Shown in pieces: positions 1-20,035 of a DNA stretch of 64,000 nt. The notes below the pieces were generated by a model. That model was not told the DNA's origin, did not search any database, and saw only the letters and a program-made list of their open reading frames with translations. Position 1 is the stretch's first letter. Every line of letters starts with the position of its first letter. This DNA is from Actinomycetes bacterium (lineage in GTDB: Bacteria > Actinomycetota > Actinomycetes > JBBQFP01). Made by a program: the position numbers and the translations under genes. The stretch is from contig JBBQFP010000005.1 in the NCBI GenBank assembly GCA_038322045.1, positions 27,619 to 91,618 of the forward strand. The letters run 5' to 3'.

Positions 1-897
1 AACCGCATGTGGTTCAACCAGTCCTACGACGAGGCAGGGGCCGTCATGGTCGCCGGTGAGCTCTCTCGCAGCCTGGCCACCCCGTCGACGGGCAGCGGCC
101 CTGTGCGCATCCACGAGAACCTGGTGCAGGACAACATGGCCAACGACGACGGCGGCGGCATCAGGCTGCTGCAGGCCGGCACCGCAGCGGTCGACATCGT
201 CAACAACATCATCGCCAACAACACCTCGGCGCACGAGGGCGGTGGCATCGCCCTCGACGACGCGACCAACGTGCGTCTGGTCAACAACACGATCTACCGC
301 AACCTGACGACGGCGACGGCGGTGACCAGTGACGGGACTCCTGCCCCGGCCGGGCTCTCGACCACGCAGAACAGCGACCAGCTCCAGGCAACCCTGCCGG
401 CCGGCTCGCCGACGTACAGCAAGCCGGTGCAGTTCAACAACATCTTCTGGGACAACTTCGCGGGCAGCTGGAACGGCCAGTTCGTCACCGGTGTCGGCTC
501 CCCCGACGCCCCGGCGGGCGATCCGCTCAACCGCTGGGACATGGGTGTCGCCGATGGCACGGGCACCCTCGACCCGACGAACAGCATCCTGTCCAACGGC
601 ACGGGTGTGATCGCCTCCTTGACCAACAAGGTCGGCGCCGACCCGCTCGTCGTCTCCCCGTTCGCCACGACGGTGACCGTGCAGGCGTCCCGTACCTTCC
701 CGAGCTTCAGGCAGGCGCTGATCGTCGTCGAGAACGTCCCGCCGTCCCTGATGGGTGACTACCACCTCCAGGGGACGTCGCCGGCGCTGGCCAGTGCCGC
801 CGCGAGCAAGGGCGCGCTCACCGCCCCCGGCATCGACGTCGACGGTCAGACCCGGCCCATCGGAGCCGGGCGCGACATCGGTGCGGACGAGCGATGA
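1..897 (+). CDS. Right-handed parallel beta-helix (PbH1/NosD-like) repeat protein; 5' end lies outside the window
   Basis: The frame is open to the window edge. It has repeated beta-helix turn motifs (VQDNMANDDGGGIRL, VNNIIANNTSAHEGGGIAL, VNNTIYRN) and a C-terminal GDYHL...GRDIGADE tail. Its stop overlaps the ATG at 894 (ATGA). Confidence 0.6.
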   Translation, partial: NRMWFNQSYDEAGAVMVAGELSRSLATPSTGSGPVRIHENLVQDNMANDDGGGIRLLQAGTAAVDIVNNIIANNTSAHEGGGIALDDATNVRLVNNTIYRNLTTATAVTSDGTPAPAGLSTTQNSDQLQATLPAGSPTYSKPVQFNNIFWDNFAGSWNGQFVTGVGSPDAPAGDPLNRWDMGVADGTGTLDPTNSILSNGTGVIASLTNKVGADPLVVSPFATTVTVQASRTFPSFRQALIVVENVPPSLMGDYHLQGTSPALASAAASKGALTAPGIDVDGQTRPIGAGRDIGADER

Positions 898-2291
898 GCA
901 CCGACCACCAGGCCGCAGGGCTACCTGATCACGCGCCGTCACCGAAGGAGAAGCACGTGGACCAGCGACAGGGTGCCCTGCACCAAGTCACCCGACGGGG
1001 GCTGCTCCTTGGCGCGGCGGGCACCGCGGCCTACGCCCTGTGGCCGGGGAGCCGCGCCGGCGCACGTCCGGTTACCGCACTGCGGGTCGCTCCTGTGGCC
1101 AGTGCCTCGAGCATGCACCTGGCGGCCACGGACGGCTGGGTGTCCATGGCGGCCAACGCGCCACACACCTCGTTCTGGCCCGACACCCTCGCCCCGTCGC
1201 CCTACGACATGTATGTCTTCGGGTTCCGTGACGTGACAGGCCTCGACGCCGCGGGCGTGACGGCCCAGCGCGGCCTCGCCCAGATCAGCGCGCCCATCCT
1301 CGCGTTCGACGAGTACGACGCGGCGAAGAACAACGACGTCCGGCTGACGCTGAGCAACCTCGGGTTGTCGGTGCGACCGGACCTCGTCGATGGCCACACG
1401 ATCCACTGGCACGGGTTCGTCAACGCCATCCCGCTGTTCGACGGCGTTCCCGAGCTCTCGATCTCGGTGCCGATCGGGCGTCAGTTCACCTACTACTACC
1501 GGCCGCACGACCCAGGCACGTACATGTACCACTGCCACTTCGAGGACGTCGAGCACGTTCAGATGGGGATGACCGGCGTGATCTACGTCCGCCCGCGCCA
1601 GAACGGCACCAACCCGGGCTCAGCGGTCCCGGCCGGTCACCAGCTGCGCTACGCCTACAACGACGGCGACGGGTCCACCCAGTACGACAGGGAGTACTCG
1701 TTCATGCTCAGCGAGGTCTGGGCCGAGGCGCACTACCGCGACGCGCACATCCAGACCACGGACTGGACGGACTACGCTCCGAGCTTCTGGCTGCTCAACG
1801 GTCGCTCGTACCCCGACACCGTCGTGGGCAACGGGAACCCGTTGAGCGGCGTGGCGGCCCCGGCGTCGGGTCTCGGCTGGCCCGGCGGCCAGGAGCGACT
1901 GCGCTACCAGCCCATCTCCTCGCTCATCCAGGCGAACTCCGGGGAGCGAGTCCTGCTGCGGCTGGCGAACCTCGGCTACCAGAACCACGTCATGACCTGC
2001 GACCAGATCCCGCTGACGACGGTGGCCAAGGACAGCGTCCGGCTGGTGAACGCCGGCGGTGTCACCCACTACCTCAGCGGCGACTCGGCGGAGATCGGCC
2101 CCGGCGAGAGCCGTGACGTCATCTTCACTGCGCCCGCCGTCACCGTGCCGACGACGTTCCTGCTCTACGACCGCAGCTACGGCTACCTCAACAACGGCGG
2201 CGGCACCGAGCCGGGCGGGCAGCTGACGCAGATCCGGGTGCACCCGTCGGGGACTCTCCCCGTCCAGCCCATCGATGCACCGAACTCCTAG
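894..2291 (+). CDS. Two-domain multicopper oxidase-like protein A; Tat signal; domain 1 copper ligands intact, domain 2 degenerate
   Basis: Twin-arginine signal TRRGLLLGAAGTAAYA. Copper motifs GHTIHWHG (nt 1395-1415) and YHCHFEDVEHVQMGM (nt 1527-1571). LLNGRSYPDT marks the start of the second cupredoxin domain. An alternative start is GTG 957, preceded by GAAGGAG. Confidence 0.8.
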   Translation: MSTDHQAAGLPDHAPSPKEKHVDQRQGALHQVTRRGLLLGAAGTAAYALWPGSRAGARPVTALRVAPVASASSMHLAATDGWVSMAANAPHTSFWPDTLAPSPYDMYVFGFRDVTGLDAAGVTAQRGLAQISAPILAFDEYDAAKNNDVRLTLSNLGLSVRPDLVDGHTIHWHGFVNAIPLFDGVPELSISVPIGRQFTYYYRPHDPGTYMYHCHFEDVEHVQMGMTGVIYVRPRQNGTNPGSAVPAGHQLRYAYNDGDGSTQYDREYSFMLSEVWAEAHYRDAHIQTTDWTDYAPSFWLLNGRSYPDTVVGNGNPLSGVAAPASGLGWPGGQERLRYQPISSLIQANSGERVLLRLANLGYQNHVMTCDQIPLTTVAKDSVRLVNAGGVTHYLSGDSAEIGPGESRDVIFTAPAVTVPTTFLLYDRSYGYLNNGGGTEPGGQLTQIRVHPSGTLPVQPIDAPNS

Positions 2292-2302
2292 GCGAGGACG
2301 AG

Positions 2303-3619
2303 ATGACGACGACCCTGTTTCGCGCCTCGACGAGGCAGCGCACGGCCCTTCTGTCCATCGTCGTGGTGGCTCTCCTCGGCCTCGTCCTCGCCATCCCCGG
2401 CGGTCGAGGTAACGCTGCGTCCCTGCAGCAGAACGGGATGGTCTGCCAGTCCAACGCCGGCAACACCTTCTCCCTCGACGCCGTGGCCGGCTACATCAGC
2501 ACCCCGGACGGCAACTCGATCTACGCCTGGGGCTACACCGGCAGCGGCCAGCAGTTCCAGCTGCCGGGCCCGGTGCTCTGCGTCGCGAGCGGTGCTCGCG
2601 TGACCGTCGTCCTGCACAACAGGCTGCCCGAACCCGTGTCGCTCACGTTCCCCGGCCAGTCCGACGTGACGGCTGACGGGCTGCCCGCGGAGCCGCAGCT
2701 CGACCCGGGCGGCAACCTCGTGTCGTTGACCCCGGCCGCTCCGGCGACGTCGGGCACCGTCACGTACGCCTTCACTGCGGGGACCCCTGGCACGTACCTG
2801 TACGAGTCGGGGACCGACGTGACCAAGCAGCGACAGATGGGCCTCTACGGCGCTCTCGTCGTCAGGCCCGCGGCGGACGCCGGCAAGGCCAACGACAGGG
2901 CCGACTCCGCCTTCGACACCGGGCGGGAGTTCCTGTTGGTCCTGTCCGAGATCGACCCCGCCCTGCACTCCGCGGTCGAGCGCAGGCGAGCGTTCGACTA
3001 CCGCACGGTCAAGGCGCGCTACTTCTTGATCAACGGCCGCAGCATGCCGGACACCCTCGCTCCGAACTTCGCCTCGTGGCTCCCGAGCCAGCCCTACGGC
3101 GCACTGGTCCACCTCGAGCCGTTCCAGCCGGGGGACCGGCCAGCCCTGATCCGATACCTCAACGCTGGCTCCGTCAACTACCCGTTCCACCCGCACGGCA
3201 ACAACGAGACGGTGATCACCAGAGACGGTGCCCCCATGGTTGACACGGCCGGTCAGGACGCGTCGTTCGAGAAGTTCCTCATCGACGTCGGCCCTGGCCA
3301 GAGCGTCGACACCCTGAACAGGTGGCAGCAGGAGTATCAGGACATCCCGGGGAAACAGATCCCCGCGGACATCGCCCTGCCGCAGCTTCAGGACCAGATC
3401 GTCGGTCCGGGCACCGAGACCTGGTTCTCGGAGAACCCTTACCTGGGCGGCAAGCCCGGAGCGCTGCCCCCCGGCATCGTGCAGAACAACGAGTGCGGTG
3501 AGTACTACCACGTGGCCCACAGCCACGCGCTGGACCAGGCCACCAACTACGGCGCGAGCTTCGGCGGGATGATGACCCTCATCCGCATCGATCCTCGCGG
3601 TGGGTGCCCCACGCCATGA
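2303..3619 (+). CDS. Two-domain multicopper oxidase-like protein B; domain 1 ligands lost, domain 2 retains HPHG and HSH
   Basis: N-terminal hydrophobic signal (ALLSIVVVALLGLVLA). It is paralogous to protein A (GTYLYESG..QMGLYGALVVRP, FLINGRSMPDT). It carries FHPHG (nt 3188-3199) and YHVAHSH (nt 3506-3526). The gap to the upstream gene is 12 nt. Confidence 0.8.
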   Translation: MTTTLFRASTRQRTALLSIVVVALLGLVLAIPGGRGNAASLQQNGMVCQSNAGNTFSLDAVAGYISTPDGNSIYAWGYTGSGQQFQLPGPVLCVASGARVTVVLHNRLPEPVSLTFPGQSDVTADGLPAEPQLDPGGNLVSLTPAAPATSGTVTYAFTAGTPGTYLYESGTDVTKQRQMGLYGALVVRPAADAGKANDRADSAFDTGREFLLVLSEIDPALHSAVERRRAFDYRTVKARYFLINGRSMPDTLAPNFASWLPSQPYGALVHLEPFQPGDRPALIRYLNAGSVNYPFHPHGNNETVITRDGAPMVDTAGQDASFEKFLIDVGPGQSVDTLNRWQQEYQDIPGKQIPADIALPQLQDQIVGPGTETWFSENPYLGGKPGALPPGIVQNNECGEYYHVAHSHALDQATNYGASFGGMMTLIRIDPRGGCPTP

Positions 3620-6600
3620 GCACCTCACGCCGAGAGGACCCGAGCACGATGCACTCATTCCTGAGCACCTCGCCTCGCTCACGCACCGGGCTGACAGCAT
3701 TGGCGGTGACCGCGGCCCTGACGCTCACGAGCTTCGCTGCCGCCGCACCCGCCGTCCAGGCTGCTCCCGTCAGCACGGCACGCGTCAGCGCGGCGCACGT
3801 CGGCACGGTGCGCGCGGCGCCGGCGCCGGCGGTCCCGAGCACCGGCCAGGGCCCCCTTACCAGCACGGCGTGCACCGCAGCCGGCGGCACCGCGGCGTGC
3901 GACCTGTGGACGGCGACCGGGACGCTCGCCCTCTCCGGCGCGAACGTCGCGGTCTGGGGCTTCACGTCGGTCAGCGGTACGCCCGCCAGCGGACGTGGTC
4001 CCGTGCTCGTCGTCACCAGTGGCGACGCCGTGACGGTGACCCTGCACAACACCCTGCCGAGGAATGTCTCGCTGGCCGTCCCTGGTGTCGCGATGATCGC
4101 GCCGGGTACCTCGGTGCGTGGCGAAGACGTCACCGGCGTGGCCGCGGGCGCCTCAGCGGCGTACACGTTCACGGCTCCGGCCGCGGGCACGTACCTCTAC
4201 GAGGCCGGCCACACGGCCAACGGCCCCCGGCAGGTGGCCATGGGCCTGGTGGGCGCCATGGTGGTACGGCCCGCCGGCTTCGACGTCGCGGCGCCGACCC
4301 AAGACGGCTCGCTCGCAACAGCGTTCGACGACGAGGCGGTGCTCGTGCTCGGTGAGGTCGACCCGGCCTTCAACGCCGCGCCGGACACCTACGACCTCCG
4401 GCGCTACCACCCGACGTACCGGCTCATCAACGGCCGGTCGTTCCCTGGGACCGAGGCCATCGCCACCGGACATGGCCGCAGCACGCTCGTGCGCTACGTC
4501 AACGGTGGCCTGCTGGCTCACTCGATGGGCGTGCTCGGTGCCAAGGAGCAGGTCCTCGCCATCGGCGGCCATGCCGATACCGGCCGGGTCCAGCTCGTGT
4601 CGGACATGGTGACGCCAGGTCAGACCGAAGACGTCCGGATCGCGTTCCCTGCTGGCGGTCCGTCGTCCATGCCGCTGTATGAGACGGCCGGGACTCTAGA
4701 CAACGCCGGACAGGTCACCGCCGTGGGCTCTCGGGTGGTGGCTCTCGGCGGCATGATGACGTTCCTGACAGCAGGAGCGGTCGGGTCCAGCGGTGACACC
4801 GTCGGGCCGAAGTCCTCCGGTGTCACGGTCATGCCCAAGCCCGTGACGCCGCTGTCACCCGCGACCGTGACCGCGACCGTGTCCGACGTCGCGACTGGAA
4901 ACGGCAACGTCAAGGCAGCGGAGCTGATCGTCGACTCCACGGTCGTGGCGGTCGGTGGCGGGGTGGTCATGACGGCGGTCGACGGCGTCTTCGACAGCCC
5001 GACCGAGGCCGTCACCGGGACGATCGACACCACCGTCCTGCAGGGGCTCGCGCAGGGTACCCACACGGTGTACGTCCGCGGGCAGGACGCCGCCGCCGTA
5101 CCCAACTGGGGGCCGGTCGCGAGCACGACGTTCACGATGGGCCTGACCGGTCCGACGACGTCGGCGCTGGCTCTCGCCAGCTCGCCGACGAACGGGTCGA
5201 GCGCGGTGCGGCTGACGGCCTCGGGTGACGACTCCAGCATCGGGGGCACGGTGACGGCGGGGGAGTACTTCCTCGACACGGCCGCCGCGGACGGCTCCGG
5301 CACAGCCATGGTCGTCAGCACCCCGGCGCGGGTGGCCGCACTGAGCGCGACCCTCGACACCGTGCTGCTCGGCGGCCTCGTCCAGGGCAAGCACACCCTT
5401 TACGTCCACGCCAAGGACGACAACAACCTCTGGGGTGCGGTCGTCCCGATCGACCTGGTGATGGACCGCACAGGGCCTTCGCTGGGTACCACGGGCAACC
5501 AGGTGACGCCGAACCCGACCAACGGGCTCGTCGGTGACCCGGTCGACCCGACGGCGCTGAAGGTGCATGTCACGCTCGTCGACCCGGTCACCAGCGGGGT
5601 CTCCTCGGCGGTCGTCGCGGCCGAAGGGTTCCTCGATGCCACGGGTACCGCGGGCACCGGCATCGTGTTCGTCGCCGACGACGGCTCGTGGAGCTCCTCC
5701 AGCGAGGCCGGCTACGGCCTCGTGCCGCTCAGCCAGGTCGTGAAGCTCCCGAGCGGTAGCCACACGGTGTTCGTGCACGGCAGGGACGCAGCGGGGAACT
5801 GGGGCACCCTCGCCCCGCTGACCTTCGTCGTCGACCGTGGGCCGACGGTCGTGGCATCGGCACCCGTGACGGTCGGCGTGCTCGCCGCTCCGATCGCGGT
5901 CGGCGTCGCCACCTCGCCGTCCGGCTCGGTGTCAGCGGCTGAGTGGTTCGAGACCGTCGACCCTGGTCCCGGCCTGGCGACGCCGCTCGGCGTCACCTCC
6001 ACCGGCGCGAGCACCGCAACCCTCACGCTGGACCCGAGCCAACTCACCCTCGGGACGCACCTGCTTCGCCAGCGGGCCAGGAGCTCGGGCGGCACGTGGG
6101 GCGCCACGGTGTCGGTGCAGGTCACGGTCACCGCGCTGATCAGCGACACGTTCGAGTCGGGGACGACGGCGGCATGGAGCGCCACCACGGGCAACGTCTC
6201 GGTGGTCACCTCCAGCGCCCTGCAGGGCGCGAGGCTGCTGCGGGTCAGCGGCGGGAACGCGTACCTGACCAGCACCCTGGCCGCCGCGACGCCCGCGCTG
6301 CACGCGACGTTCCTCGTGTCCCCGCAGACGCTGAGCACCGGCAGCAGTGCCGGTGCGTGGGTCTCGGTGATGCAGGGACGAACGGCTGGCGGCACCACGG
6401 TGGTCGACGTCCAGTACCACCGTCAGGGCACCGCTGCACCGCAGGTCAGGCTGGTCGTCAGCAGCGGCGCAGGGACGTCGACCTCGGCAGCCGTCACGCT
6501 GCCGACGGCCACGGCCTCCGCCGTGCGGGTCGACTGGCTCGGCGGCACCACCGGCACGGCGGTGCTGACCGTCAACGGGTCGGCGTCTCCGGCGCAGCCG

Positions 6601-6699
6601 TCAGCCACGACGCTCCAGGTCTCGGCGCTCCGCCTCGGCCTCGTGGGGACCGGCACGACCGGCCGGCTGTTCCTCGACTCCTACCTCGCCTCGCGCTAA
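3616..6699 (+). CDS. Large secreted MCO-like protein C without copper ligands, followed by four Ig-like repeat modules and a lectin-like C-terminal domain
   Basis: The ORF-track start is 3604. ATG 3616 overlaps the stop of protein B (ATGA). Signal peptide RSRTGLTALAVTAALTLTSFAAAAPAVQA. The cupredoxin-like N-terminal 390 aa are paralogous to B (GTYLYEAG..QVAMGLVGAMVVRP, RLINGRSFPGT, ALGGMMTFL), followed by repeats. Confidence 0.75.
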   Translation: MSTSRREDPSTMHSFLSTSPRSRTGLTALAVTAALTLTSFAAAAPAVQAAPVSTARVSAAHVGTVRAAPAPAVPSTGQGPLTSTACTAAGGTAACDLWTATGTLALSGANVAVWGFTSVSGTPASGRGPVLVVTSGDAVTVTLHNTLPRNVSLAVPGVAMIAPGTSVRGEDVTGVAAGASAAYTFTAPAAGTYLYEAGHTANGPRQVAMGLVGAMVVRPAGFDVAAPTQDGSLATAFDDEAVLVLGEVDPAFNAAPDTYDLRRYHPTYRLINGRSFPGTEAIATGHGRSTLVRYVNGGLLAHSMGVLGAKEQVLAIGGHADTGRVQLVSDMVTPGQTEDVRIAFPAGGPSSMPLYETAGTLDNAGQVTAVGSRVVALGGMMTFLTAGAVGSSGDTVGPKSSGVTVMPKPVTPLSPATVTATVSDVATGNGNVKAAELIVDSTVVAVGGGVVMTAVDGVFDSPTEAVTGTIDTTVLQGLAQGTHTVYVRGQDAAAVPNWGPVASTTFTMGLTGPTTSALALASSPTNGSSAVRLTASGDDSSIGGTVTAGEYFLDTAAADGSGTAMVVSTPARVAALSATLDTVLLGGLVQGKHTLYVHAKDDNNLWGAVVPIDLVMDRTGPSLGTTGNQVTPNPTNGLVGDPVDPTALKVHVTLVDPVTSGVSSAVVAAEGFLDATGTAGTGIVFVADDGSWSSSSEAGYGLVPLSQVVKLPSGSHTVFVHGRDAAGNWGTLAPLTFVVDRGPTVVASAPVTVGVLAAPIAVGVATSPSGSVSAAEWFETVDPGPGLATPLGVTSTGASTATLTLDPSQLTLGTHLLRQRARSSGGTWGATVSVQVTVTALISDTFESGTTAAWSATTGNVSVVTSSALQGARLLRVSGGNAYLTSTLAAATPALHATFLVSPQTLSTGSSAGAWVSVMQGRTAGGTTVVDVQYHRQGTAAPQVRLVVSSGAGTSTSAAVTLPTATASAVRVDWLGGTTGTAVLTVNGSASPAQPSATTLQVSALRLGLVGTGTTGRLFLDSYLASR

Positions 6700-6770: not shown

Positions 6771-7244
6771 ATGACAGCACGAGGTCTGCACCGACTCGCC
6801 GCGGGCCGCGGCACTCTGCGGCTGCTCGCCCTCGCCTTGGCGGTGACTCTGGTGGCGGCGTTCGCCTGGCACTCCGCGGGCTCCGCGTCGGCGGTTCGGG
6901 CCTACCAGGTGCCCACCGACCCCGACATGGAGGCTGGCCTCGGCGTCCGGTTCGTGCGGGCCGCCGTCGTGGCCGACGGCGGAATCGTCGAGCTCCGGTA
7001 CACGGTGCTCGACCCGCAGCGGGCGTCGCGGTTCCAGAACGACGTCAAGCACCCGCCGGTGCTGCACAGCGAGCGCCGCAAGGGCAACGTCTACCGCACC
7101 GCCCTCATGCGGCAGGGCCACGACCTGCGGCCCGGCCAGAGCTACTACATCCTCTACCTCAACAACCAGGGCTCGATCCGGCCCGGTGACACCATGGAGA
7201 TCGACGCCGGCGGCAAGAAGCTCCGCAAGGTCCCGGTCCACTGA
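6771..7244 (+). CDS. Small secreted hypothetical protein (157 aa)
   Basis: Internal ATG of the 5943..7244 ORF, preceded by AAAGGA. It has a signal-like N-terminus (LRLLALALAVTLVAAFAWHSAGSASA). Its stop lies 1 nt before the CopC/CopD start. Confidence 0.55.
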   Translation: MTARGLHRLAAGRGTLRLLALALAVTLVAAFAWHSAGSASAVRAYQVPTDPDMEAGLGVRFVRAAVVADGGIVELRYTVLDPQRASRFQNDVKHPPVLHSERRKGNVYRTALMRQGHDLRPGQSYYILYLNNQGSIRPGDTMEIDAGGKKLRKVPVH

Positions 7245-7245
7245 C

Positions 7246-9234
7246 GTGGCGGCCCCTGCCTCGATCGCGCGACGCCTGCGGGCGGGTCTCGCCGTCCTGT
7301 CCGCGGTGGTTCTCGCGATGCTCGCCAGCCTTGCGCTCGCCGGGTCCGCCTCGGCCCACGCGGAGCTCGACAGCAGCGCACCAGGGGACGGGGCGAGCCT
7401 GGCTCAGGCGCCGAGGCAGCTGGTCCTGCGCCTCAGCGAGTCCGTGGAGCTCTCGGCGAGCACGATCAGCATCTCCGACGGTGACGGGCACACCATGCCG
7501 ACGGGTGCGTTGCGCCTGACCCGAGCGCCAGGCGCCGGGACCGAGGCGCCCGTCACCCTCGTCGTGGACCTGCCCACGCTCGGGCGCGGTGACTACCGGG
7601 TCGACTGGCGGACGCTGTCCAGCGACGACCTCCACGTCACCCAGGGTGTCCTCGTCTTCGGCGTCGGCACGACGACGGACGGCGCGAGCGCGGTCAGGTC
7701 CGCCGCAGCGCAGCCGAGGCCCTCGACGGTCGAGGCCGCCACCCGGTGGGTCGGCCTGCTCGCGCTCGGGGTCGCACTGGGCTGCGTCACGCTGCTGGTG
7801 CTGCTGTCCCGCGTTCAGCACGTCGCGGGCGTGGGCCGACCGGTGCGTCGGCGACTGCTCGGAGTCGCGAGTCCGGCCGCCTGGACGGCGCTGGTGGCGG
7901 GGCTCGTCCTTCCCGTGACGCAGGCTGCCGGCGCCGGCGGTGACGTCGGCGCGACGCTGCGCCGGCTGCTGCTGACGGGCGCCTACGCGCCGCGCTGGTG
8001 GCTGCACCAGGCGGCTCTGGCCTGCCTGGTGCTGGCGGTCCGAGCGGCGCGACACCGTGCCGACGACGCCGACGCCGCCGAGCACTCGCGTCGGCTCGGG
8101 GTCGTCGCCGGGGCGTGCGCCGTCGTCGCCTGCACGACCGCGACGCTCATGGGCCATGGCGGGGCGAGAGCCGCCAGTCGACCGCTGCTCGTCGTGGTGG
8201 AGAGCTCCCACGTGCTCGCTGCCCTGCTGTGGACGGGGTCGGTGGTGGCCGCCGCCGTCGTCCTGACGGCTCCGCGACGGCCAGGCGCGGCCGGGCTGCG
8301 CAGCGCCGTGCTTCGCCGGTTCGGGGCGGTGGCCGCTGGGTGCGTCGCCGTCATGGTCGTCACCGGGCTGCTCCTTGCCGGACGCCGCATCGCCACGCTC
8401 GACGCACTGGTGCACTCGACCTACGGGGTGACCCTGCTGGTCAAGTGCGCCGTCGGGCTGCTCGCGGGCCTGCTCGGCCTGGTGAGCTCGGTCGCGCTGC
8501 GCCCGCCCTGGGCGGCGCGGGTGGGGCTGTACCGGGCGCCGCAGCGCTGGGCGGGCCGGCTCCTGCCGTGGGAGGGGCTGCTCGTGGTGGGAGCGCTGGG
8601 CGCAGCGGCGGTGCTGGCCGCGTCCGCGCCGGCGTCAGGGCCGCGCTGGGCGGTCGCGCACCCGCCGGCGCTGCTCGTCGGGGGCAACGCCGGTGACCTG
8701 GTGGAGACGGTACGGGTCAAGCCGGACCGCCCGGGTGCCAACTTCGTCTCGGTCGACGTGTTCGACTCCCGCCGTCCAGCGCCCGGACCGGTCCGCAGCG
8801 TCGAGGTGACGTTGCGTGGGCCGACCGGCTCCACGCAGAGCGCTCCGGCGGTCACCGCGGGCGGGTCGACGTGGCTCGTGGCGGGCTCGCAGCTGACGGC
8901 GGGGGTCTGGCACATCGGCGTGCGGGCGTCGCGCAGCGGGCTGCCCGACGCGACGGCGAGCTACCGCTGGGTCGTGCCGGACCCGGCGGCTCGGCAGGTC
9001 ACCGGTGTGGCAGCCGCTCCTCTGACGCGGTGGACGGACCCCGCTGCGGCTGTCGTCGGCCTCGCTGCCCTCGCCGGCCTGGCGGGTGCGCTGCACCGCC
9101 GGCGCCGTCCGCGCGTGGAAGCCGGGACCGCCGACGTCGAGGATGGGGGCGACCGGGCCGAAGACGGCGCGGCGGGAGCCCATGCGGCAGCGGTGAGCGC
9201 GCCCCCGGCGCTGGAGGGTGCCGGGGTGCGCTGA
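7246..9234 (+). CDS. CopC/CopD fusion copper resistance/uptake protein with a C-terminal extracytoplasmic beta-sandwich-like domain and TM anchor
   Basis: GTG 7246 is in frame with the 7186 ORF. The signal peptide ends ASAHAELDSSAP, giving the mature N-terminal His typical of CopC. It has DDLHVTQG, then about 8 hydrophobic CopD-type helices, a soluble domain (VKPDRPGANFVSVDVFD...) and an acidic tail. Confidence 0.85.
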   Translation: MAAPASIARRLRAGLAVLSAVVLAMLASLALAGSASAHAELDSSAPGDGASLAQAPRQLVLRLSESVELSASTISISDGDGHTMPTGALRLTRAPGAGTEAPVTLVVDLPTLGRGDYRVDWRTLSSDDLHVTQGVLVFGVGTTTDGASAVRSAAAQPRPSTVEAATRWVGLLALGVALGCVTLLVLLSRVQHVAGVGRPVRRRLLGVASPAAWTALVAGLVLPVTQAAGAGGDVGATLRRLLLTGAYAPRWWLHQAALACLVLAVRAARHRADDADAAEHSRRLGVVAGACAVVACTTATLMGHGGARAASRPLLVVVESSHVLAALLWTGSVVAAAVVLTAPRRPGAAGLRSAVLRRFGAVAAGCVAVMVVTGLLLAGRRIATLDALVHSTYGVTLLVKCAVGLLAGLLGLVSSVALRPPWAARVGLYRAPQRWAGRLLPWEGLLVVGALGAAAVLAASAPASGPRWAVAHPPALLVGGNAGDLVETVRVKPDRPGANFVSVDVFDSRRPAPGPVRSVEVTLRGPTGSTQSAPAVTAGGSTWLVAGSQLTAGVWHIGVRASRSGLPDATASYRWVVPDPAARQVTGVAAAPLTRWTDPAAAVVGLAALAGLAGALHRRRRPRVEAGTADVEDGGDRAEDGAAGAHAAAVSAPPALEGAGVR

Positions 9235-9384: not shown

Positions 9385-9726
9385 GTGCGTGATCTGGCGC
9401 CGAGCATCTATCGGCAACGGCTGGTCATCGAGGGGAGCTGCAGCGAGGCGATCGGTGCGGCGGAGATCAGCGAGTACCTGACCGATCTGTCGAACACCAT
9501 CGACATGGTGGCCCTCATCGAGCCGGTCACGCACCTGTCGCCGACCTACGGCTGGGCCGGGTGGATCCACTGGGAGACCTCCGGGGCGCACTTCTACGCG
9601 TGGGACGAGCCCGACCTGTTCTTCAGCGTCGACATCTACTCGTGCAAGCCCTTCGACGTCGCCCATGCGGTCGAGATGACGCGGGAGCGCTTCGGCTGCT
9701 CCGACGTCGAGTTCGCGGAGCTGTGA
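9385..9726 (+). CDS. S-adenosylmethionine decarboxylase-like (SpeH/SpeD class 1b fold, pyruvoyl-type) small protein
   Basis: 113 aa. By eye, WETSGAHFYAWDEPDLFFSVDIYSCKPFD aligns to the SESHLTIHTWPE...DLFTCG core of bacterial AdoMetDC. The processing Ser is present but is preceded by Thr rather than Glu. A GAGGGAG RBS lies upstream. Confidence 0.6.
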   Translation: MRDLAPSIYRQRLVIEGSCSEAIGAAEISEYLTDLSNTIDMVALIEPVTHLSPTYGWAGWIHWETSGAHFYAWDEPDLFFSVDIYSCKPFDVAHAVEMTRERFGCSDVEFAEL

Positions 9727-10574
9727 GCGCCCCCGCGCGTGCCGGAGCTGCCGTCCTCAGCCTTCACGTCAACCCGACCGGCGAGCTGCTCGAGGCCGCC
9801 CGAGAGTGCGAGGCCGAGATCTTCCAGCGCTGGTACGGCAACTCGCGCCGACAGCTCGACGCCGAGTACGGCCCCTACGAGCACGCGACGGCGTTCATCG
9901 TCCTGTGCCGTGAGGGCGATGGCGGCACGATGGTCGTCGACGGCCTCGAGGTCGTCGGCGTCACCCGGGTGATCCGGCCGAACTCGCGGGGACTCAAGAC
10001 GTTCACCGACGTCGCCCTCCCGCCGTGGGAGGTTGATCCCGACCGCGCCAGCCGCGCCGCCGGGCTCGATCCCGCGACGACGTGGGAGGTCGCGACGATC
10101 GGCGTCCGCTCCGGTCGCGGCCTCGCCGGGCGGCAGTGCGCGGCGGCGCTCTATCACGGCCTCGTGCTCGCCGGCCGGGTCAACGACGTCCATGCGCTCG
10201 TCGCCGTCCTCGACGAGAAGGTCCGCGGCATGCTCGAGGCCGCCGGGCTCGGGATGCAGGCGCTGCCGGGCACCAAGCCCATGCCCTACCTGGGCTCCGC
10301 TGCGAGCACCCCCGTGTTCGGCGAGCTCGCCGCGATGCTCAGCCGGCAGCGTCGGCACTCCCCGGAGGCGTACCGGCTCGTCACGCTGGGCGTGGGGCTC
10401 AGCGGGGTCACCGTGCCGCCGCCCGAGGCGTTCCTCCTGCCGGTTCCGGCGATCTCGGTGACGGCAGGGTGTGCTGACCGGGTGACGGTCGTCCTGCCGC
10501 AGCAGCGGAGGATCGACCTGCGCTCGTCGAGGTCAGCAGGCGGACTCGTCGAGGAGCCGGCCGCGCGCGGCTAG
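9724..10574 (+). CDS. Hypothetical protein, possibly a GNAT / N-acyl-synthase-like fold
   Basis: GTG 9724 overlaps the upstream stop (GTGA). GC3 is high. The pattern EAEIFQRWYG...EYGPYE...VVGVTRVI...WEVATIGV...YLGSAASTPV resembles acyltransferase-fold enzymes, but the family call is weak. Its 3' end overlaps the convergent gene by 42 nt. Confidence 0.45.
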
Positions 10575-12857
10575 CGCTCCGGCGACGCTGGGGGCTCCGG
10601 TCGTCGGCGCCGCCGCCGTCCGGCGCCGTACCCAGGCCTCGACGTCGCGCGCCGGCATCGGACGAGCGATGTGGTAGCCCTGGAGGACGTCGACGCCCAT
10701 CGAGGCGAGCTCGCTGCCGGTGTCGGCGTCCTCGACGCCCTCCGCCACGAGCCGTAGCCCCATGGCGTGGGCCATCTGGCGGGTCGAGTCGACGATGACC
10801 TTGCTGCGGGGGTCCGAGCGCATCGTGGCGACGAAGGTGCGGTCGATCTTGAGCTCCTGCACCGGAAGGTCGCGCAGGTAGGCCAGCGACGAGAACCCGG
10901 TGCCGTAGTCGTCGACGGAGATCTGCACCTGGTGGGCCCGCAGGTCGAGCAGCGTCTCGCGGGCCCGCTCCGGGTCGGCGATGAACGAGTCCTCGGTGAC
11001 CTCGACGAGGATCGACTGCGGTGGCAGGCCGTGCTCGGTGATCTGGCGGAACAGCTGCGGCAGGACGCTGCCCGCAAGCAGTTCCGGCGGCGCGCAGTTG
11101 ACGGCGACGTGGAAGTCCAGGCCCCGGTCCAGCCACCCGCGTGCGTCGGTGACGGCGAGCCGCATGACCTGCTCCGAGAGCGCCCGCATGAGCCCCGAGC
11201 GCCTGGCGTCGGGCAGGAACGCCGCGGGCTGAAGGAGCCCGTGCTGCGGGTGCTCCCAGCGCACGAGCGCCTCGACGCCGAGCACCTCGTCGGTGACGGC
11301 GTCCACCTGAGGTTGGTACCAGAGGACGAGCTGGTCGTTCTCGATGCCCCGGCGGAGCTCCTCGATGAGTGCCAGCCGGTGGTGGGAGAACTCATCGCGC
11401 GTGGCGTCGTAGAGGACGACGGCCGAGCGCGCCGAGCGCGCCTGGTTGAGCGCGACCTCGGCCCGGCGCAGGACGTCGGACGGCGCGAGGTCGGTGCCCG
11501 CCCCCGCCGCGACGCCGACGGAGGTGCGGATCGCGAGCTCCATGCCGTTGACGAGGACCGGCCGCAGCAGCTCGTCGCGGGCGCGGCGGGCCGTCTCGAG
11601 CAGGACGATGTCGTCGTCGAGGCGGACGACGACGGCGAACTCGTCAGCACCCTGACGGGCCACGGTAGCCGAGGACCCGAGCGTCTTCGTCAGCCGGCGG
11701 GCAACGACCTGGAGCACGGCGTCGCCCGACTCGTGGCCGAGGCTGTCGTTGATGTCCTTGAAGCCGTCGATGTCGAGGAGCAGCACGCCGATGGGGCCAC
11801 CGAGCCGGATCGAGGCCTCGAGCTCGATGAGCAGCCCGCGGCGGTTCGGCAGCGACGTCAGCTCGTCGAGCTTGGCCAGACGGAGCTCCTCACTGGTCCG
11901 CTCGGCGTCGCGCATCGCCAGCGTGAGACGCCACATCGCCGCCGTCAGCGTGATGACGGCCGGCACGGTGACGTACCACCCGGCGAAGCCGGCGGGACGG
12001 GTGACGAGCACACCGACGGCGACAGACGCGGCAGCAACGAGCAACGAGGCGGGCTGCCGGCGGTTGGGGGCCGCTGAGTCGACCGACGACGTCGTCGCGC
12101 CCGCGACGACGAGGGCGAAGCCGAGGCCGTAGACGAGGTCGAGCGAGGCGCTCGAGACGTAGGTGTCGCTCGCGAGGTTGGCCACGAGGCTGCAGTCGGC
12201 GACCGCGACGGCGAGGAACCCGAGGGACAACGTCGTCGTCTGCCAGGACACCCGGCGCTGCCGCAGCAGCACCTGGCCGAGCACGGTGAGGGCCAGGGCG
12301 GAGTCGATGAGCGGGTACAGCAGCGCCATGAACAGCGGCATCCCCGAGGCCCCGAGGGCCTGCGCCGCCGGCATGAGCAGCACCGATGCCGCGATGCACG
12401 CCACGCCGCCGCAGACGACCGCGGTCTCGAGCCACACCGAGGCGCCCCGGCTGGTGCGGCGCGGCACGTCGAGGAGGAGGAACGACACGATCCCGACGTA
12501 GGAGGCGAGGAACCACAGCTCGCCGGGCGCAGGGAAGCGGGTCAGCGTGGCGACGCCGCCGCCGATGAGCGCGACCGATCCCGCGGCCCAGGACGCCAGC
12601 CCTGCGGCGAGGCAGAGCAGCGGCATCCGGCGCGCGGGCTGGAGCAGCCCGGAGAGGAGCAGCCGGCCGAGCAGGAGGAGGAAGAACGCCGCCATCGTGG
12701 CGGTGAGGGCGCCGTGCATCGATGCACCGACGTGCTCGGCGCCGACGACGAGGATGATGCCGCCACCGCAGAGGAGCACGGCCCAGCTGAGGCGTTGGAG
12801 GGTGACCGCGACGAGGCGCACGTCAGCGGCACGCCACTGCTCGGTCCGTCGTCGCAC
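10533..12857 (-). CDS. Membrane sensor with GGDEF (GADEF variant) and EAL domains (c-di-GMP turnover)
   Basis: About 300 aa of hydrophobic helices, then LPNRRG...DIDGFKDINDSLGHESGD...RQGADEF, then EALVRWEHP...DDYGTGFSSLAYL...KIDRTFV...EGVE...QGYHIARP. Confidence 0.85.
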   Translation of the reverse strand: MRRRTEQWRAADVRLVAVTLQRLSWAVLLCGGGIILVVGAEHVGASMHGALTATMAAFFLLLLGRLLLSGLLQPARRMPLLCLAAGLASWAAGSVALIGGGVATLTRFPAPGELWFLASYVGIVSFLLLDVPRRTSRGASVWLETAVVCGGVACIAASVLLMPAAQALGASGMPLFMALLYPLIDSALALTVLGQVLLRQRRVSWQTTTLSLGFLAVAVADCSLVANLASDTYVSSASLDLVYGLGFALVVAGATTSSVDSAAPNRRQPASLLVAAASVAVGVLVTRPAGFAGWYVTVPAVITLTAAMWRLTLAMRDAERTSEELRLAKLDELTSLPNRRGLLIELEASIRLGGPIGVLLLDIDGFKDINDSLGHESGDAVLQVVARRLTKTLGSSATVARQGADEFAVVVRLDDDIVLLETARRARDELLRPVLVNGMELAIRTSVGVAAGAGTDLAPSDVLRRAEVALNQARSARSAVVLYDATRDEFSHHRLALIEELRRGIENDQLVLWYQPQVDAVTDEVLGVEALVRWEHPQHGLLQPAAFLPDARRSGLMRALSEQVMRLAVTDARGWLDRGLDFHVAVNCAPPELLAGSVLPQLFRQITEHGLPPQSILVEVTEDSFIADPERARETLLDLRAHQVQISVDDYGTGFSSLAYLRDLPVQELKIDRTFVATMRSDPRSKVIVDSTRQMAHAMGLRLVAEGVEDADTGSELASMGVDVLQGYHIARPMPARDVEAWVRRRTAAAPTTGAPSVAGALAARGRLLDESAC

Positions 12858-13122: not shown

Positions 13123-14898
13123 GTGCGACCATGTGGGACGCGCCCCGTGACCCGGGGCGTCGGAGGTGTACCTGTGCTGACCCCCCTGCTGCGGCGATTC
13201 CTGCGTCCCTACGCACGCTGGCTCGTCGTCGTCCTCGTCCTCCTGCTCGTCCAGGCCATGACGAGCCTGTACCTGCCGACGCTCAACGCCCGGCTCATCG
13301 ACGAGGGCGTCACCCAGGGCGACCTGCACCGGGTGTGGACGATAGGCGGCTGGATGCTCCTCGTCTCCGCCGTCCTCGCCGTCGCGACGGTGGCCGGCGT
13401 CTACTGGTCGGCCCGCACGGCGATGGCGGTCGGGCGGGACATGAGGGCAGCGGTGTTCCTCACCGTCGAGGGGTTCAGCGCCCGGGAGGTCAACGCCTTC
13501 GGCACCCCGTCGCTCATCACCCGCAACACCAATGACGTCCAGCAGGTCCAGATGGTCGTCCTGCTCGGTCTCACGATCATGGTGCTCGGGCCGGTCACCA
13601 TGGTCGGCGGGATCGTCATGGCGCTGCGTCAGGACGTCGGACTGTCGGCCGTGCTCATCGTGGCGCTGCCGGTCATGGCCGGGGTGATCGGGCTGCAGGT
13701 CCGACGGCTCCTGCCGCTCTTCCGGTCGATGCAGGTAAAGATCGACACGATCACCTCGGTGCTGCGCGAGCAGATCACCGGCGTCCGAGTCGTCCGGGCC
13801 TTCGTCAAGGAGGAGCACGAGACGGCGCGGTTCGCCGACGCCAACGCCGACCTCACCGGCACTGCGCTCCAGGTGACCCGCGTCTTCGCCCTGCTCATGC
13901 CCATGCTCATGGCGGTGCTCAACCTCTCGAGCGTCGCCATCATGTGGTTCGGCGCCCACCGGGTCGACGACGGCGCCCTGCAGATCGGCCAGCTCACCGC
14001 CTTCCTCAGCTACATGATGCAGATCCTTCTCGCGGTCATGATGGCGACGATGATGGTCGTCATGGTGCCGCGGGCCGCCGCGTGCGCCGAGCGCATCTGC
14101 GCCGTCCTCGACACCGAGCCAACCGTCCGTGAGCCTGCTCTCCCCGTCCTGGCCACGCCGGGCCTCGGGGTCGAGCTCGTCGACGTCGGGTTCAGCTACC
14201 CCGGCGCCGAGCGTCCGGTGCTCAGCGGGGTGTCGTTCACCCTGCGCCCCGGCGCGACGACGGCGATCGTCGGGAGCACCGGCGCGGGCAAGACGACGCT
14301 CGTCAACCTCCTCCCGCGCCTCTACGACGTCACCGAGGGGCGGGTGCTCGTCGGTGGCGTGGACGTTCGCGAGCAGGGGCTCGAGGCGCTGTGGGCCTCC
14401 ATCGCCCTGTGCCCCCAGAAGCCCTTCCTCTTCCGCGGCACCGTGGCGAGCAACCTGCGTTTCGGCGACCCCGAGGCCACCGACGACGACCTCTGGCGCG
14501 CGCTCGAGGTGGCTCAGGCAAGGGACTTCGTCGAGGCGATGGAGGGAGGCCTCGAGGCGGAGATCGTCCAGGGCGGGGCGAACCTCTCTGGCGGTCAGCG
14601 CCAGCGGCTCGCCATCGCCCGCGCCGTCGTCAAGCGTCCTGCCGTGTACGTCTTCGACGACAGCTTCTCGGCGTTGGACTACACGACCGACGCGCGGCTG
14701 CGTGCGGCGCTGCGGGAGTGCACCCGTGACGCCGTCGTCCTCGTCGTGGCGCAGCGGGTGAGCACCGTCATGCACGCCGAGCGGATCGTCGTCCTCGACG
14801 AGGGCCGGGTCGTGGGCATCGGCACCCACGACGAGCTCCTCGAGACCTGCACGACCTACGAAGAGATCGTCAGCTCCCAGCTGGCGGCTGCGGCATGA
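13123..14898 (+). CDS. ABC transporter permease/ATP-binding protein (exporter half-transporter 1)
   Basis: Six-helix TMD followed by an NBD with Walker A GSTGAGKTT, signature LSGGQRQR and Walker B VYVFDD. The start is uncertain; an in-frame GTG near 13174 gives VLTPLLRRF. Confidence 0.85.
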   Translation: MRPCGTRPVTRGVGGVPVLTPLLRRFLRPYARWLVVVLVLLLVQAMTSLYLPTLNARLIDEGVTQGDLHRVWTIGGWMLLVSAVLAVATVAGVYWSARTAMAVGRDMRAAVFLTVEGFSAREVNAFGTPSLITRNTNDVQQVQMVVLLGLTIMVLGPVTMVGGIVMALRQDVGLSAVLIVALPVMAGVIGLQVRRLLPLFRSMQVKIDTITSVLREQITGVRVVRAFVKEEHETARFADANADLTGTALQVTRVFALLMPMLMAVLNLSSVAIMWFGAHRVDDGALQIGQLTAFLSYMMQILLAVMMATMMVVMVPRAAACAERICAVLDTEPTVREPALPVLATPGLGVELVDVGFSYPGAERPVLSGVSFTLRPGATTAIVGSTGAGKTTLVNLLPRLYDVTEGRVLVGGVDVREQGLEALWASIALCPQKPFLFRGTVASNLRFGDPEATDDDLWRALEVAQARDFVEAMEGGLEAEIVQGGANLSGGQRQRLAIARAVVKRPAVYVFDDSFSALDYTTDARLRAALRECTRDAVVLVVAQRVSTVMHAERIVVLDEGRVVGIGTHDELLETCTTYEEIVSSQLAAAA

Positions 14899-16889
14899 GC
14901 ACGGCTCCTCCTGCAGGCGGCCCGAGGACCCCGACGGCACCGCCCAAGCCCCCGCCCGGCGCACGCGGCGGCCCCGGGATGGCTCACATGGCCATGGCGA
15001 TGCCCGTCGAGAAGCCGAAGAGCTTCGGGGTCTCGGCCCGCCGCCTGGTCGGGTCGCTCCGCCCGGAGCGCGCGCTCATCGCCGCCGTCGCCGCCCTCGG
15101 CGCGGTGAGCGTGGCGCTGTCGGTCCTTGGTCCCCGGGTCCTCGGGCACGTGACGAACATCGTGTTCGAGGGCATCAGCAGCCGCCGGCTCCCCGCCGGG
15201 GTGACGCAGGCCGAGGCGGTGGCCTCGCTGCGTGCGAAAGGTGACGCGCGGGTCGCCGACATCCTCTCGGCGATGACGCTGCGTCCCGGGCAGGGAATCG
15301 ACTTCGGCGCGCTCAACCGGTGGGTCTCGGTCGCCGTGCTTCTCTTCCTCACGAGCTCGGCGTTCATGTGGGCGCAGAACTACCTCATGGCCGGAGTCGT
15401 CCAGCGCACGGGGTACCGGCTGCGCGAAGAGGTCGACGCCAAGCTCAACCGGCTGCCGCTGCGCTACTTCGACAACAGCTCACGGGGCGACCTGCTGAGC
15501 CGGGTCACCAACGACATCGACAACGTCACGCAGACGTTGCAGCAGACCCTGAGCCAGGCGCTCACCGCGCTGCTCACCGTCATCGGCGTCCTCGTCATGA
15601 TGCTGAGCATCAGCCCCCTGCTGGCGCTCGTCTCGCTCGTCGTCCTCCCGGTCTCCGGCGTCGTCGCCCAGGCTGTCGCCCGGCGCTCGCAGCCTCAGTT
15701 CGCCGAGCAGTGGCGCTGGACCGGCATCCTCAACGGCCACGTCGAGGAGATGCACACCGGGCACGAGCTCGTGAAGGTCTACGGGCGCCGGCGTCAGGCC
15801 GTGGAGACCTTCGCCGAGGCCAACGACGAGCTGTACTCGGCCAGCTTCAGGGCGCAGTTCATCTCCGGCATCATCCAGCCCCTGCTCGGGCTGCTGAGCA
15901 ACCTCAACTACGCGGCGATCTGCGTCATCGGCGGCTGGCGCGTGACGACGGGGTCGTTGTCCCTCGGCGACGTCCAGGCGTTCATCCAGTACTCCCGTCA
16001 GTTCTCCATGCCGATCACCCAGCTCGCCAGCGTGGCCAACCTGCTCCAGAGCGGGGTCGCCTCGGCGGAGCGGGTCTACGAGCTGCTCGACGCCGACGAG
16101 GAGCCCGCCCTCCAGCGGTCGCCCGCCACGCTCCCCGTCTCCGGTCCCGCGCGAGGCAGGGTCGCCTTCGAGCACATCGCATTTCGCTACGCCCCAGACG
16201 TGCCCCTCATCGACGACCTCTCGGTCCGGGTCGAGCAGGGGAGCACGGTCGCGATCGTCGGGCCGACCGGGGCCGGGAAGACGACCCTCGTCAACCTCCT
16301 CATGCGCTTCTATGACGTCGACGCCGGGCGCATCACGCTCTCCGGCGTCGACATCAGGGACCTACGGCGTGACGAGCTCCGGCGCAGCTTCGGCATGGTG
16401 CTCCAGGACACCTGGCTCTTCCGGGGCACCATCCGGGACAACATCGCCTACGGCGCCACGGGTGCCACCGACGAGCAGGTGCTTGCCGCTGCGCGGGCGG
16501 CTTATGTCGACAGGTTCGTCCACCACATCCCCGACGGCTACCTCACGGTCATCGACGACGAGGCCTCGAACCTCTCCGCGGGAGAGAAGCAGCTCGTGAC
16601 GATCGCCCGCGCCTTCCTCGCCGACCCGCCGATCCTCATCCTCGACGAGGCGACGTCCTCGGTCGACACGCGCACCGAGGTCCTCGTCCAGGCTGCGATG
16701 GCACGGCTGCGCCATGGCCGGAAGAGCTTCGTCATCGCCCACCGTCTCTCGACGATCCGCGACGCCGACACGATCCTCGTCATGGACGCCGGTGCCGTCG
16801 TCGAGCAGGGGACCCACGAGGAGCTCCTCGCCTCGGGCGGGGTCTACGCGCGCTTGCACGCCAGCCAGTTCGAGGGCGCCGTCACCTGA
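14895..16889 (+). CDS. ABC transporter permease/ATP-binding protein (exporter half-transporter 2)
   Basis: ATGA overlap with the upstream gene. Walker A GPTGAGKTT, signature LSAGEKQL and Walker B ILILDE. Confidence 0.9.
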   Translation: MSTAPPAGGPRTPTAPPKPPPGARGGPGMAHMAMAMPVEKPKSFGVSARRLVGSLRPERALIAAVAALGAVSVALSVLGPRVLGHVTNIVFEGISSRRLPAGVTQAEAVASLRAKGDARVADILSAMTLRPGQGIDFGALNRWVSVAVLLFLTSSAFMWAQNYLMAGVVQRTGYRLREEVDAKLNRLPLRYFDNSSRGDLLSRVTNDIDNVTQTLQQTLSQALTALLTVIGVLVMMLSISPLLALVSLVVLPVSGVVAQAVARRSQPQFAEQWRWTGILNGHVEEMHTGHELVKVYGRRRQAVETFAEANDELYSASFRAQFISGIIQPLLGLLSNLNYAAICVIGGWRVTTGSLSLGDVQAFIQYSRQFSMPITQLASVANLLQSGVASAERVYELLDADEEPALQRSPATLPVSGPARGRVAFEHIAFRYAPDVPLIDDLSVRVEQGSTVAIVGPTGAGKTTLVNLLMRFYDVDAGRITLSGVDIRDLRRDELRRSFGMVLQDTWLFRGTIRDNIAYGATGATDEQVLAAARAAYVDRFVHHIPDGYLTVIDDEASNLSAGEKQLVTIARAFLADPPILILDEATSSVDTRTEVLVQAAMARLRHGRKSFVIAHRLSTIRDADTILVMDAGAVVEQGTHEELLASGGVYARLHASQFEGAVT

Positions 16890-19886: not shown

Positions 19887-19914
19887 GAGGGATACCTCCG
19901 GGCACGAGCGATGC

Positions 19915-20035
19915 CCCCGGGGTCTTCGCCGCCCGTGCGCTTCACGGGCTTCCCAGGCCGGCCACCGCACGGGCGATGACGTGATGACGACCTGGGGACG
20001 TCGGGCGTACTCCCCACCGAGGTGTCCTCAGTGTG
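19915..20035 (-). promoter_or_regulatory. Probable yybP-ykoY (Mn2+) riboswitch in the terC leader
   Basis: The minus-strand RNA contains GGGGAGUA (20015-20008), GUCGUCA (19991-19985) and GCGAAGACC (19929-19921). These are in the same order as the conserved blocks of yybP-ykoY as I recall them. A hairpin overlapping the GGAGG RBS follows. Confidence 0.6.

Follow-up and report, generated by a model that had tools for sequence, protein, structure and literature searches.

Three tandem two-domain multicopper oxidase paralogs with complementary copper ligands: a putative split oxidase of Actinomycetota

Three paralogs share one set of copper ligands

On the actinobacterial contig JBBQFP010000005.1, within a stretch of 64,000 nucleotides (the window), positions 894-6699 hold three open reading frames (ORFs) on one strand, which we call A, B and C in their order along the DNA. 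They encode paralogs of the two-domain multicopper oxidases (MCOs), and the ligands of one complete oxidase site are divided between A and B, while C has none. The base composition of the window is 69-77% G+C, and in a genome scan its closest relatives were cultured and uncultured Actinomycetota. All three reading frames are intact; the G+C content at third codon positions (GC3) is 0.90-0.91 for each, typical of genuine genes in this genome.

The genes are closely packed. The stop codon of an upstream gene for a giant surface protein overlaps the start of A by ATGA (894-897); A and B are 11 nucleotides apart, one fewer than the 12 given in the original prediction, with a GAGGA Shine-Dalgarno sequence ahead of B; and, as that prediction had it, the stop of B and the start of C overlap by ATGA. 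There is an alternative start for C, GTG at 3604, and overlaps with B of -4 and -16 are both found among orthologs. Across the related loci described below, the A-B gap has a median of 13.5 nucleotides and is often -4 or +1; B and C frequently overlap (-4, -13 or -16). The A, B and C genes are translationally coupled with the upstream gene.

The three proteins resemble each other far beyond chance and are paralogs, as had been claimed. Pairwise identities are 25% for A and B (E 2e-14), 26% for A and C (E 6e-12) and 34% for B and C (E 2e-29), making C the nearest paralog of B, and hhalign probabilities among the three are 99.6-100%. The Pfam family Cu-oxidase_3 is above its cut-off in all three, and Cu-oxidase_2 matches A (above cut-off) and B. 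In both sequence and profile searches, the best matches in the PDB are type-C two-domain oxidases, the blue copper oxidase of Nitrosomonas europaea (3G5W) and the metagenomic mgLAC (2ZWN); the profile matches span both domains (A, E 9e-22; C, E 6.5e-18; B, E about 4e-7), and each of the three proteins has the two cupredoxin domains of this type. The structural comparison agrees: a Foldseek search with a model of A returned 3G5W as the top match, with a TM(target) of 0.67. None of the three reaches the cut-off of a curated NCBIfam oxidase family. We rejected assignment to the copper-resistance MCOs of the CopA/CueO type, given scores of 32-36 bits for copper_res_A against a cut-off of 479 and 18-24 bits for CueO against 525; the three-domain chain of those enzymes is also a mismatch.

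Two-domain MCOs are trimers in which the trinuclear copper cluster (TNC) is ligated by two protomers, and in type C the type 1 (T1) copper site lies in the N-terminal domain (PMC13151041). In oxidases of the 3G5W/2ZWN type, domain 1 carries the T1 site and the motifs H-x-x-H-x-H-G and H-C-H..H..M, domain 2 carries H-x-H-G and H-x-H, and the TNC forms between domain 1 of one chain and domain 2 of the next. These enzymes are homotrimers with 12 ligand positions per chain, and hence three T1 sites and three TNCs per trimer.

Subunit A keeps the whole domain 1 set. Its T1 site is complete (H168, C214, H221 and M226), and H171, H173, H213 and H215 are the TNC histidines. GHTIHWHG of A aligns on PHTIHWHG of 3G5W and 2ZWN; residues 213-226 read HCHFEDVEHVQMGM, and the stretch YHCHFEDVEHVQMGM aligns on YHCHVNVNEHV..M of the same two structures. 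Both motifs lie at the nucleotides originally reported, and the alignments confirm them as ligand positions. Elsewhere in A there is no HxH. In domain 2, NHVMTCDQ aligns on VHAIHTHG, so that T368 and D370 occupy the TNC positions, and Y425-D-R427 aligns on the C-terminal HDH; the loss of ligands from this domain, part of the original prediction, is thus borne out.

Subunit B is the complement of A, just as predicted. The ligand positions of its domain 1 are vacant (V112/T115/P117, E168-S-G170 and Q176), with neither His nor Cys at any of them. In its domain 2 the four TNC histidines are present: FHPHG, with H296 and H298, aligns on MHSHG in domain 2 of 2ZWN, and H-S-H, with H406 and H408, matches by position the C-terminal HDH of 3G5W and 2ZWN, where the equivalent residues of A are Y425-D-R427.

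Subunit C has no HxH in its entire 1027 residues, and its only cysteines are C86 and C95. On the 3G5W alignment its ligand positions read V/A/P, E-A-G, G305/L307 and Y-E-T; all four motifs are lost. The earlier description of C as free of ligands therefore stands, except that the segment LAHSMG quoted for domain 2 was offset: the TNC positions are G305 and L307, and the His in that segment, H302, is vestigial. Both C H302 (nt 4519-4521) and A H365 (nt 1986-1988) are nearly invariant in domains otherwise free of ligands, and both align to the first His of H-x-x-H-x-H-G in domain 2 of 3G5W and 2ZWN, a vestigial T1-His position; C H199 corresponds in the alignment to the final His of HCH. We considered whether A H365, C H302 and C H199 might make a second site like the type 2 copper site of NirK and rejected it: H365 and H302 are vestigial residues that 3G5W and 2ZWN also keep, and so they need no new site. 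A residual metal site at H199 is neither supported nor excluded.

Taken together, a T1 site in the N-terminal domain is found in A and is lacking in B and C, and in place of eight TNC histidines per chain there are four in domain 1 of A, four in domain 2 of B and none in C. The full set exists only in the pair A + B, as originally proposed; profile alignments and the invariance of these residues in orthologs and in the wider B family agree on this. Unlike in 3G5W and 2ZWN, then, the ligands are split over two paralogs and a third has none, leaving at most one T1 site and one TNC per A-B-C unit. Because a TNC is shared by two protomers, no homo-oligomer of A, B or C could form one, and under the trimer rule a complete eight-His site could arise only where domain 1 of A meets domain 2 of B. 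The logic of the sequences thus speaks against a functional homotrimer of any of the three.

The proteins also differ in their export signals. A carries a twin-arginine (Tat) motif, TRRGLLLGAAG, in which R34 and R35 are each at least 90% conserved (the consensus of the orthologs is LSRRxLLxGxAG), and this motif points to the Tat route; B and C have Sec-type signals and conserved Cys pairs. C continues beyond its oxidase module with four repeats resembling immunoglobulin (Ig) domains, a region with a weak match to Pfam Big_13 in which a BLAST self-comparison of C detected no repeats, and ends in a domain that matches Pfam CBM_4_9 at E 0.005, under the curated cut-off.

Conservation, fusions and divergent loci

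A genome scan with A returned 393 relatives, of which 80 loci were kept. They come from Micromonosporaceae, Pseudonocardiaceae, Nocardioidaceae, Kribbellaceae, Intrasporangiaceae, Frankiales and Acidothermaceae, and the sources include Micromonospora, Amycolatopsis, Kribbella, Terrabacter, Nocardioides, Planosporangium, Dactylosporangium and Nakamurella. B directly follows A in all 80, and C comes next wherever the contig continues; where contigs were long enough, neither A nor B was ever found alone in the kept loci, and every such locus reads A-B-C. The expectation that the paralogs always occur together is therefore upheld.

The ligands are as constant as the gene order. All eight A ligands are present in 81 of 81 A orthologs; the H296/H298 motif of B is found in 77 of 77 orthologs and the H406/H408 motif in 76 of 77; C orthologs have no copper ligands. 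Conservation is concentrated where the ligands are: 56% of the columns in domain 1 of A and 46% of those in domain 2 of B are at least 95% conserved, compared to 17-31% for domain 2 of A and for C. C is the least conserved of the three, with 41-56% identity among orthologs versus 56-74% for A and B.

We also searched a profile of B against 1.84 billion cluster representatives at 50% identity. The B family comprises 412 clusters at E<1e-30. Among 149 new representatives in the top list, the 86 with all four ligand columns aligned all read H-H-H-H in domain 2; another 55 are truncated or unaligned at these columns and eight read otherwise. No representative was seen with a restored domain 1 ligand set, and a few have a single His at the first HCH position. 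These results support the view that the complementary loss of ligands is maintained by purifying selection.

In two divergent representatives (P0241, 884 amino acids; P0242, 1156 amino acids) a single ORF encodes a complete B, a linker and the C module. Their linkers have in common a homologous domain of about 80 amino acids, indicating that the fusions are real and not frameshift artefacts, and their contigs retain the context of giant protein, A, B-C, small protein and CopC-CopD. The B-C linkers are long and variable (140-470 amino acids), and their domains have no match in Pfam or NCBIfam. Such fusions are Rosetta-stone evidence, at the level of sequence, that B and C may belong to one particle. 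Other apparent fusions are less trustworthy. The giant-A and truncated B-C fusions at L083 and L089 come from one ENA sample (ERZ25039488), have lost terminal motifs, including the last motif of the B part, and are probable assembly indel artefacts; an apparent A-B fusion (P0287, locus L088) lies on a 3-kb contig with broken genes and is unreliable.

Two divergent loci show how far the architecture can vary. At L084, A and B are accompanied by a tandem C-C protein of 696 amino acids (4112-6202), with a faint dockerin match, in place of the C with an Ig-like tail. At L087 (6684-13924), the order A-B-C is found on a contig with neighbors of a Gram-negative type (BamD-like, RelA/SpoT); the C-like protein there has 1490 amino acids with NHL, SBBP and HYR modules, and the B-like protein reads HPFHFDG. 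The trio at L087 implies that the architecture is older and wider than Actinomycetota. The same order also occurs on L086, a contig of 57% G+C.

The neighborhood of the trio

Where the contig suffices, the loci have the order giant surface protein, A, B, C, small protein, CopC-CopD. The giant protein, about 1700-1800 amino acids when complete, precedes A in 78 of 80 loci. The part of it encoded in the window matches Beta_helix and NosD in Pfam and, in NCBIfam, choice_anch_Q (a choice-of-anchor-Q C-terminus); full-length orthologs of 1710-1790 amino acids combine CarboxypepD_reg, SdrD_B, TIG and a NosD-like beta-helix (for example L001:4605-9977 and L008:4814-9946). Its possible roles are those of a substrate, an anchor or a maturation factor.

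The small protein has a hydrophobic N-terminal segment, and its residues that are at least 90% conserved include three His and one Met. It has no match in Pfam or NCBIfam. Its gene follows C in 66 actinobacterial loci as well as in the distant L081, L082 and L084, and the protein may deliver copper to the oxidase as a chaperone. The CopC-CopD protein is kept downstream in most loci. Its longest ORF (from GTG 7186) overlaps the small gene by 59 nucleotides; the true start is possibly GTG 7246, one base past the stop of the small gene. Cleavage at ASA|HAEL would leave mature CopC with an N-terminal His, like that of Cu(II)-binding CopC proteins.

In 63 of 80 loci the cluster is flanked, downstream or divergently upstream, by genes for an OmpR-type response regulator and a histidine kinase (e.g., L001:2631-4551). 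The best NCBIfam match of the regulator is the heavy-metal (cztR/silR/copR) subfamily, under the cut-off. For the locus described here, the pair is expected upstream of the window. A scan of the rest of the 64-kb window revealed no additional copper genes; positions 9385-64000 hold unrelated housekeeping and signaling genes.

Table 1 Features of the trio, its neighbors and other genes in the window.
Feature	Position	Strand	Evidence
Giant secreted beta-helix protein, C-terminal 296 aa (gene begins upstream of the window)	7..897	+	
Subunit A, two-domain MCO paralog, 465 aa	894..2291	+	Pfam, 3g5w profile match, Foldseek
A, twin-arginine (Tat) motif R34-R35 in TRRGLLLGAAG	993..998	+	conserved motif
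A, motif H168-T-I-H171-W-H173-G (T1 His and two TNC His), residues 168-174	1395..1415	+	
A, motif H213-C214-H215-x5-H221-x4-M226 (T1 Cys/His/Met and two TNC His)	1530..1571	+	
Subunit B, two-domain MCO paralog, 438 aa, Sec-type signal	2303..3619	+	
B, motif H296-P-H298(-G), two domain 2 TNC His	3188..3196	+	
B, motif H406-S-H408, two domain 2 TNC His	3518..3526	+	
Subunit C, whole, 1027 aa	3616..6699	+	
C, N-terminal part: signal peptide and copper-free two-domain MCO module (core about 3865-4791)	3616..4800	+	
C, four Ig-like repeats, ~110 aa each, starts near nt 4801, 5140, 5464, 5833	4801..6132	+	by-eye reading
C, C-terminal beta-sandwich-like domain, weakly CBM_4_9-like, tentative	6133..6699	+	Pfam
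Small conserved protein, ~157 aa, membrane-anchored or secreted	6771..7244	+	
CopC-CopD fusion protein (copper handling/import)	7186..9234	+	Pfam CopC 1.9e-17, CopD 5.8e-12
AdoMetDC-like ORF	9385-9726		
GGDEF-EAL protein	10533-12857	-	
ABC exporter pair	13123-16889		
TerC	18750-19970	-	
EAL protein	20069-21529	-	
Polyphosphate kinase	30869-32968	-	
Chorismate-binding/aminotransferase-IV fusion	50815-52764		

A proposed assembly and its alternatives

We think it probable that A, B and C make up an exported hetero-oligomeric MCO, in its simplest form a 1:1:1 ring of six cupredoxin domains; the sequence data support the idea of a split oxidase put forward in the original prediction, and those of the checks proposed with it that could be run by computation all turned out in its favor. 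In this model, the three proteins would be exported and then assemble as a ring resembling the trimer of two-domain MCOs. The sole T1 site, in domain 1 of A, would take electrons from the substrate and hand them on, via the C214-H213/H215 bridges, to the only TNC. The ligands of this TNC, at which O2 would be reduced to water, would be H171, H173, H213 and H215 of A together with H296, H298, H406 and H408 of B. The implied order of the ring is B(domain 2)-A(domain 1), A(domain 2)-C(domain 1), C(domain 2)-B(domain 1), and the last two interfaces would be free of copper. C, itself without copper, would close the ring, and its variable C-terminal modules probably tether or target the enzyme to the cell surface or to the giant protein; a role as scaffold or targeting subunit fits the variety of these modules (Ig-like here, NHL/HYR at L087, a faint dockerin at L084). 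The small protein and CopC-CopD probably supply copper. The substrate may be Cu(I), Fe(II), Mn(II) or a phenolic or cell-surface compound. We infer the assembly, the ring order, the 1:1:1 stoichiometry, the metallation and the role of the accessory genes.

Several observations weigh against this model. The AlphaFold2 (AF2) monomer models, built from shallow alignments of 41 sequences, are of moderate to low confidence: the predicted local distance difference test score (pLDDT) is 69.5 for A and 60.9 for B, and residues 343-432 of B fall below 50, so that the quality of the B model is too low for a fold search or for reasoning about interfaces. The C-C tandem at L084 gives eight cupredoxin domains, not what a strict six-domain ring predicts. 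The A-like protein of L087 has neither the T1 Cys nor HCH (YSGF replaces YHCH); the trio can thus persist without a canonical oxidase site, a hint of a scaffold role that does not depend on catalysis. The two variants make it plain that the architecture need not come as a six-domain enzyme with four coppers. Finally, with a Tat motif in A and Sec-like signals in B and C, assembly of the complex, TNC included, would have to take place outside the cytoplasm.

The alternative that survives best agrees that A and B build a single TNC; it holds that they do so as a heterodimer or a higher-order assembly and not as a 1:1:1 ring, with C a separate anchor or adaptor, for example on the giant beta-helix protein. 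Neither the tandem C-C protein of L084 nor the long, variable B-C linkers demand a closed ring, and the faster evolution of C relative to A and B points the same way. However, C keeps the whole fold signature of a two-domain type-C oxidase, matching 3G5W over both domains, it is the closest paralog of B, and the B-C fusions argue for its presence in the same particle as B. Moreover, the trimers of NirK and of the two-domain MCOs known so far are closed (PMC13151041). We therefore consider a non-ring assembly unlikely.

Still less likely, in our judgment, is that A, B and C work independently, each as a homo-oligomer or a monomer that does not reduce O2, with A a blue-copper electron carrier with spare histidines and B and C having copper-binding, sequestering or structural roles in a copper-homeostasis locus. 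There is some reason to entertain this: copper-free, non-enzymatic MCO homologs such as FtsP (SufI) exist, CopC-CopD is encoded in the locus, the nearby regulator best matches a heavy-metal subfamily, if under the cut-off, and the L087 variant has no T1 site. Yet separate action leaves unexplained both the Cys-His electron-transfer bridge retained in A and the invariant complementary halves of a TNC (HxH and HCH in domain 1 of A, HxH and HxH in domain 2 of B) across hundreds of clusters. We know of no function for half a TNC. As for simple decay, in which duplicated oxidase genes would be degenerating with no joint function, the loss of ligands is typical of pseudo-enzymes, but the idea is effectively refuted by the conservation data: the frames are intact with a GC3 of 0.90-0.91, different orders of Actinomycetota share the synteny, the remaining ligands do not vary, and the genes show translational coupling and, in some lineages, fusion.

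If the heterotrimer model holds, the enzyme would resemble the six-domain MCOs (ceruloplasmin, hephaestin and MnxG), which likewise form a ring of six cupredoxin domains with one TNC at one of three interfaces, the other two being degenerate; the distribution of ligands predicts a single TNC per six-domain ring here as well. The model of Nakamura and Go derives the six-domain MCOs from a trimer of two-domain chains. They consist of one polypeptide with up to three T1 sites in even-numbered domains, as in type B. In contrast, there are three polypeptides here (two where B and C are fused) and a single T1 site, in an N-terminal domain; the six cupredoxin domains lie in three separate ORFs, and the largest natural fusion seen, B-C, has four. 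Matches of ceruloplasmin to B are marginal (E about 5e-3), with no close sequence kinship. The predicted assembly would thus resemble ceruloplasmin-type oxidases in function, built from separate paralogous chains.

Other MCOs are hetero-oligomers as well. The Mnx complex of Bacillus sp. PL-12 (MnxE3F3G) and the heterodimeric laccase POXA3 have obligatory accessory subunits encoded beside the oxidase. None of those subunits is an MCO paralog or provides a ligand to the TNC, and the catalytic chain is complete on its own. FtsP, to which C has a weak NCBIfam match, shares with C a cupredoxin fold without copper ligands and a non-catalytic character; unlike C, it is a three-domain monomer that acts in cell division and has no active MCO paralogs as partners. 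Nmar_1354 of Nitrosopumilus maritimus (PDB 9CCK), which is among the PDB matches of A and B, is an MCO-like trimer of two-domain chains that has been called an alpha-alpha-alpha' 'heterotrimer' (PMC11761707). Its heterogeneity is different in kind: the variant chain is a proteolytic form of one gene product, with a dangling cupredoxin domain lost from one protomer, and the ligand sets are full in all protomers (PMC11761707). In full-text literature searches we found no account of paralogs that together make up a heteromeric two-domain MCO.

A catalytic metal cluster split over two paralogs, with a dead third as the ring-closer, would be new for MCOs, judging from these searches. On balance we lean, with some reserve, towards a broader reading, in which the trio represents a widespread and so far undescribed class of obligate heterotrimeric MCOs, with the active site split over two paralogs and a copper-free third closing the ring; it would be the unfused counterpart of the intermediate postulated between a homotrimer and ceruloplasmin, with B-C fusions as the next step, and would lie at the center of a copper module that soil Actinomycetota conserve at the cell surface, with a further occurrence of the enzyme in a Gram-negative lineage. 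If this is true, these loci would offer an extant example of the path from homotrimer through paralog specialization to fusion that is assumed for ceruloplasmin, hephaestin, MnxG and the A-domains of factors V and VIII, with the three-chain stage and the two-chain stage (B and C fused) both observable.

The source annotation, where it names these proteins at all, goes no further than 'multicopper oxidase domain-containing protein'. Should the model be right, the single chains would be catalytically incomplete, so that expression of single genes, or laccase mining one gene at a time, would fail and co-expression would be required. The trio forms the core of a conserved soil-actinobacterial locus that also comprises a two-component system, the giant surface protein, the small protein and CopC-CopD.

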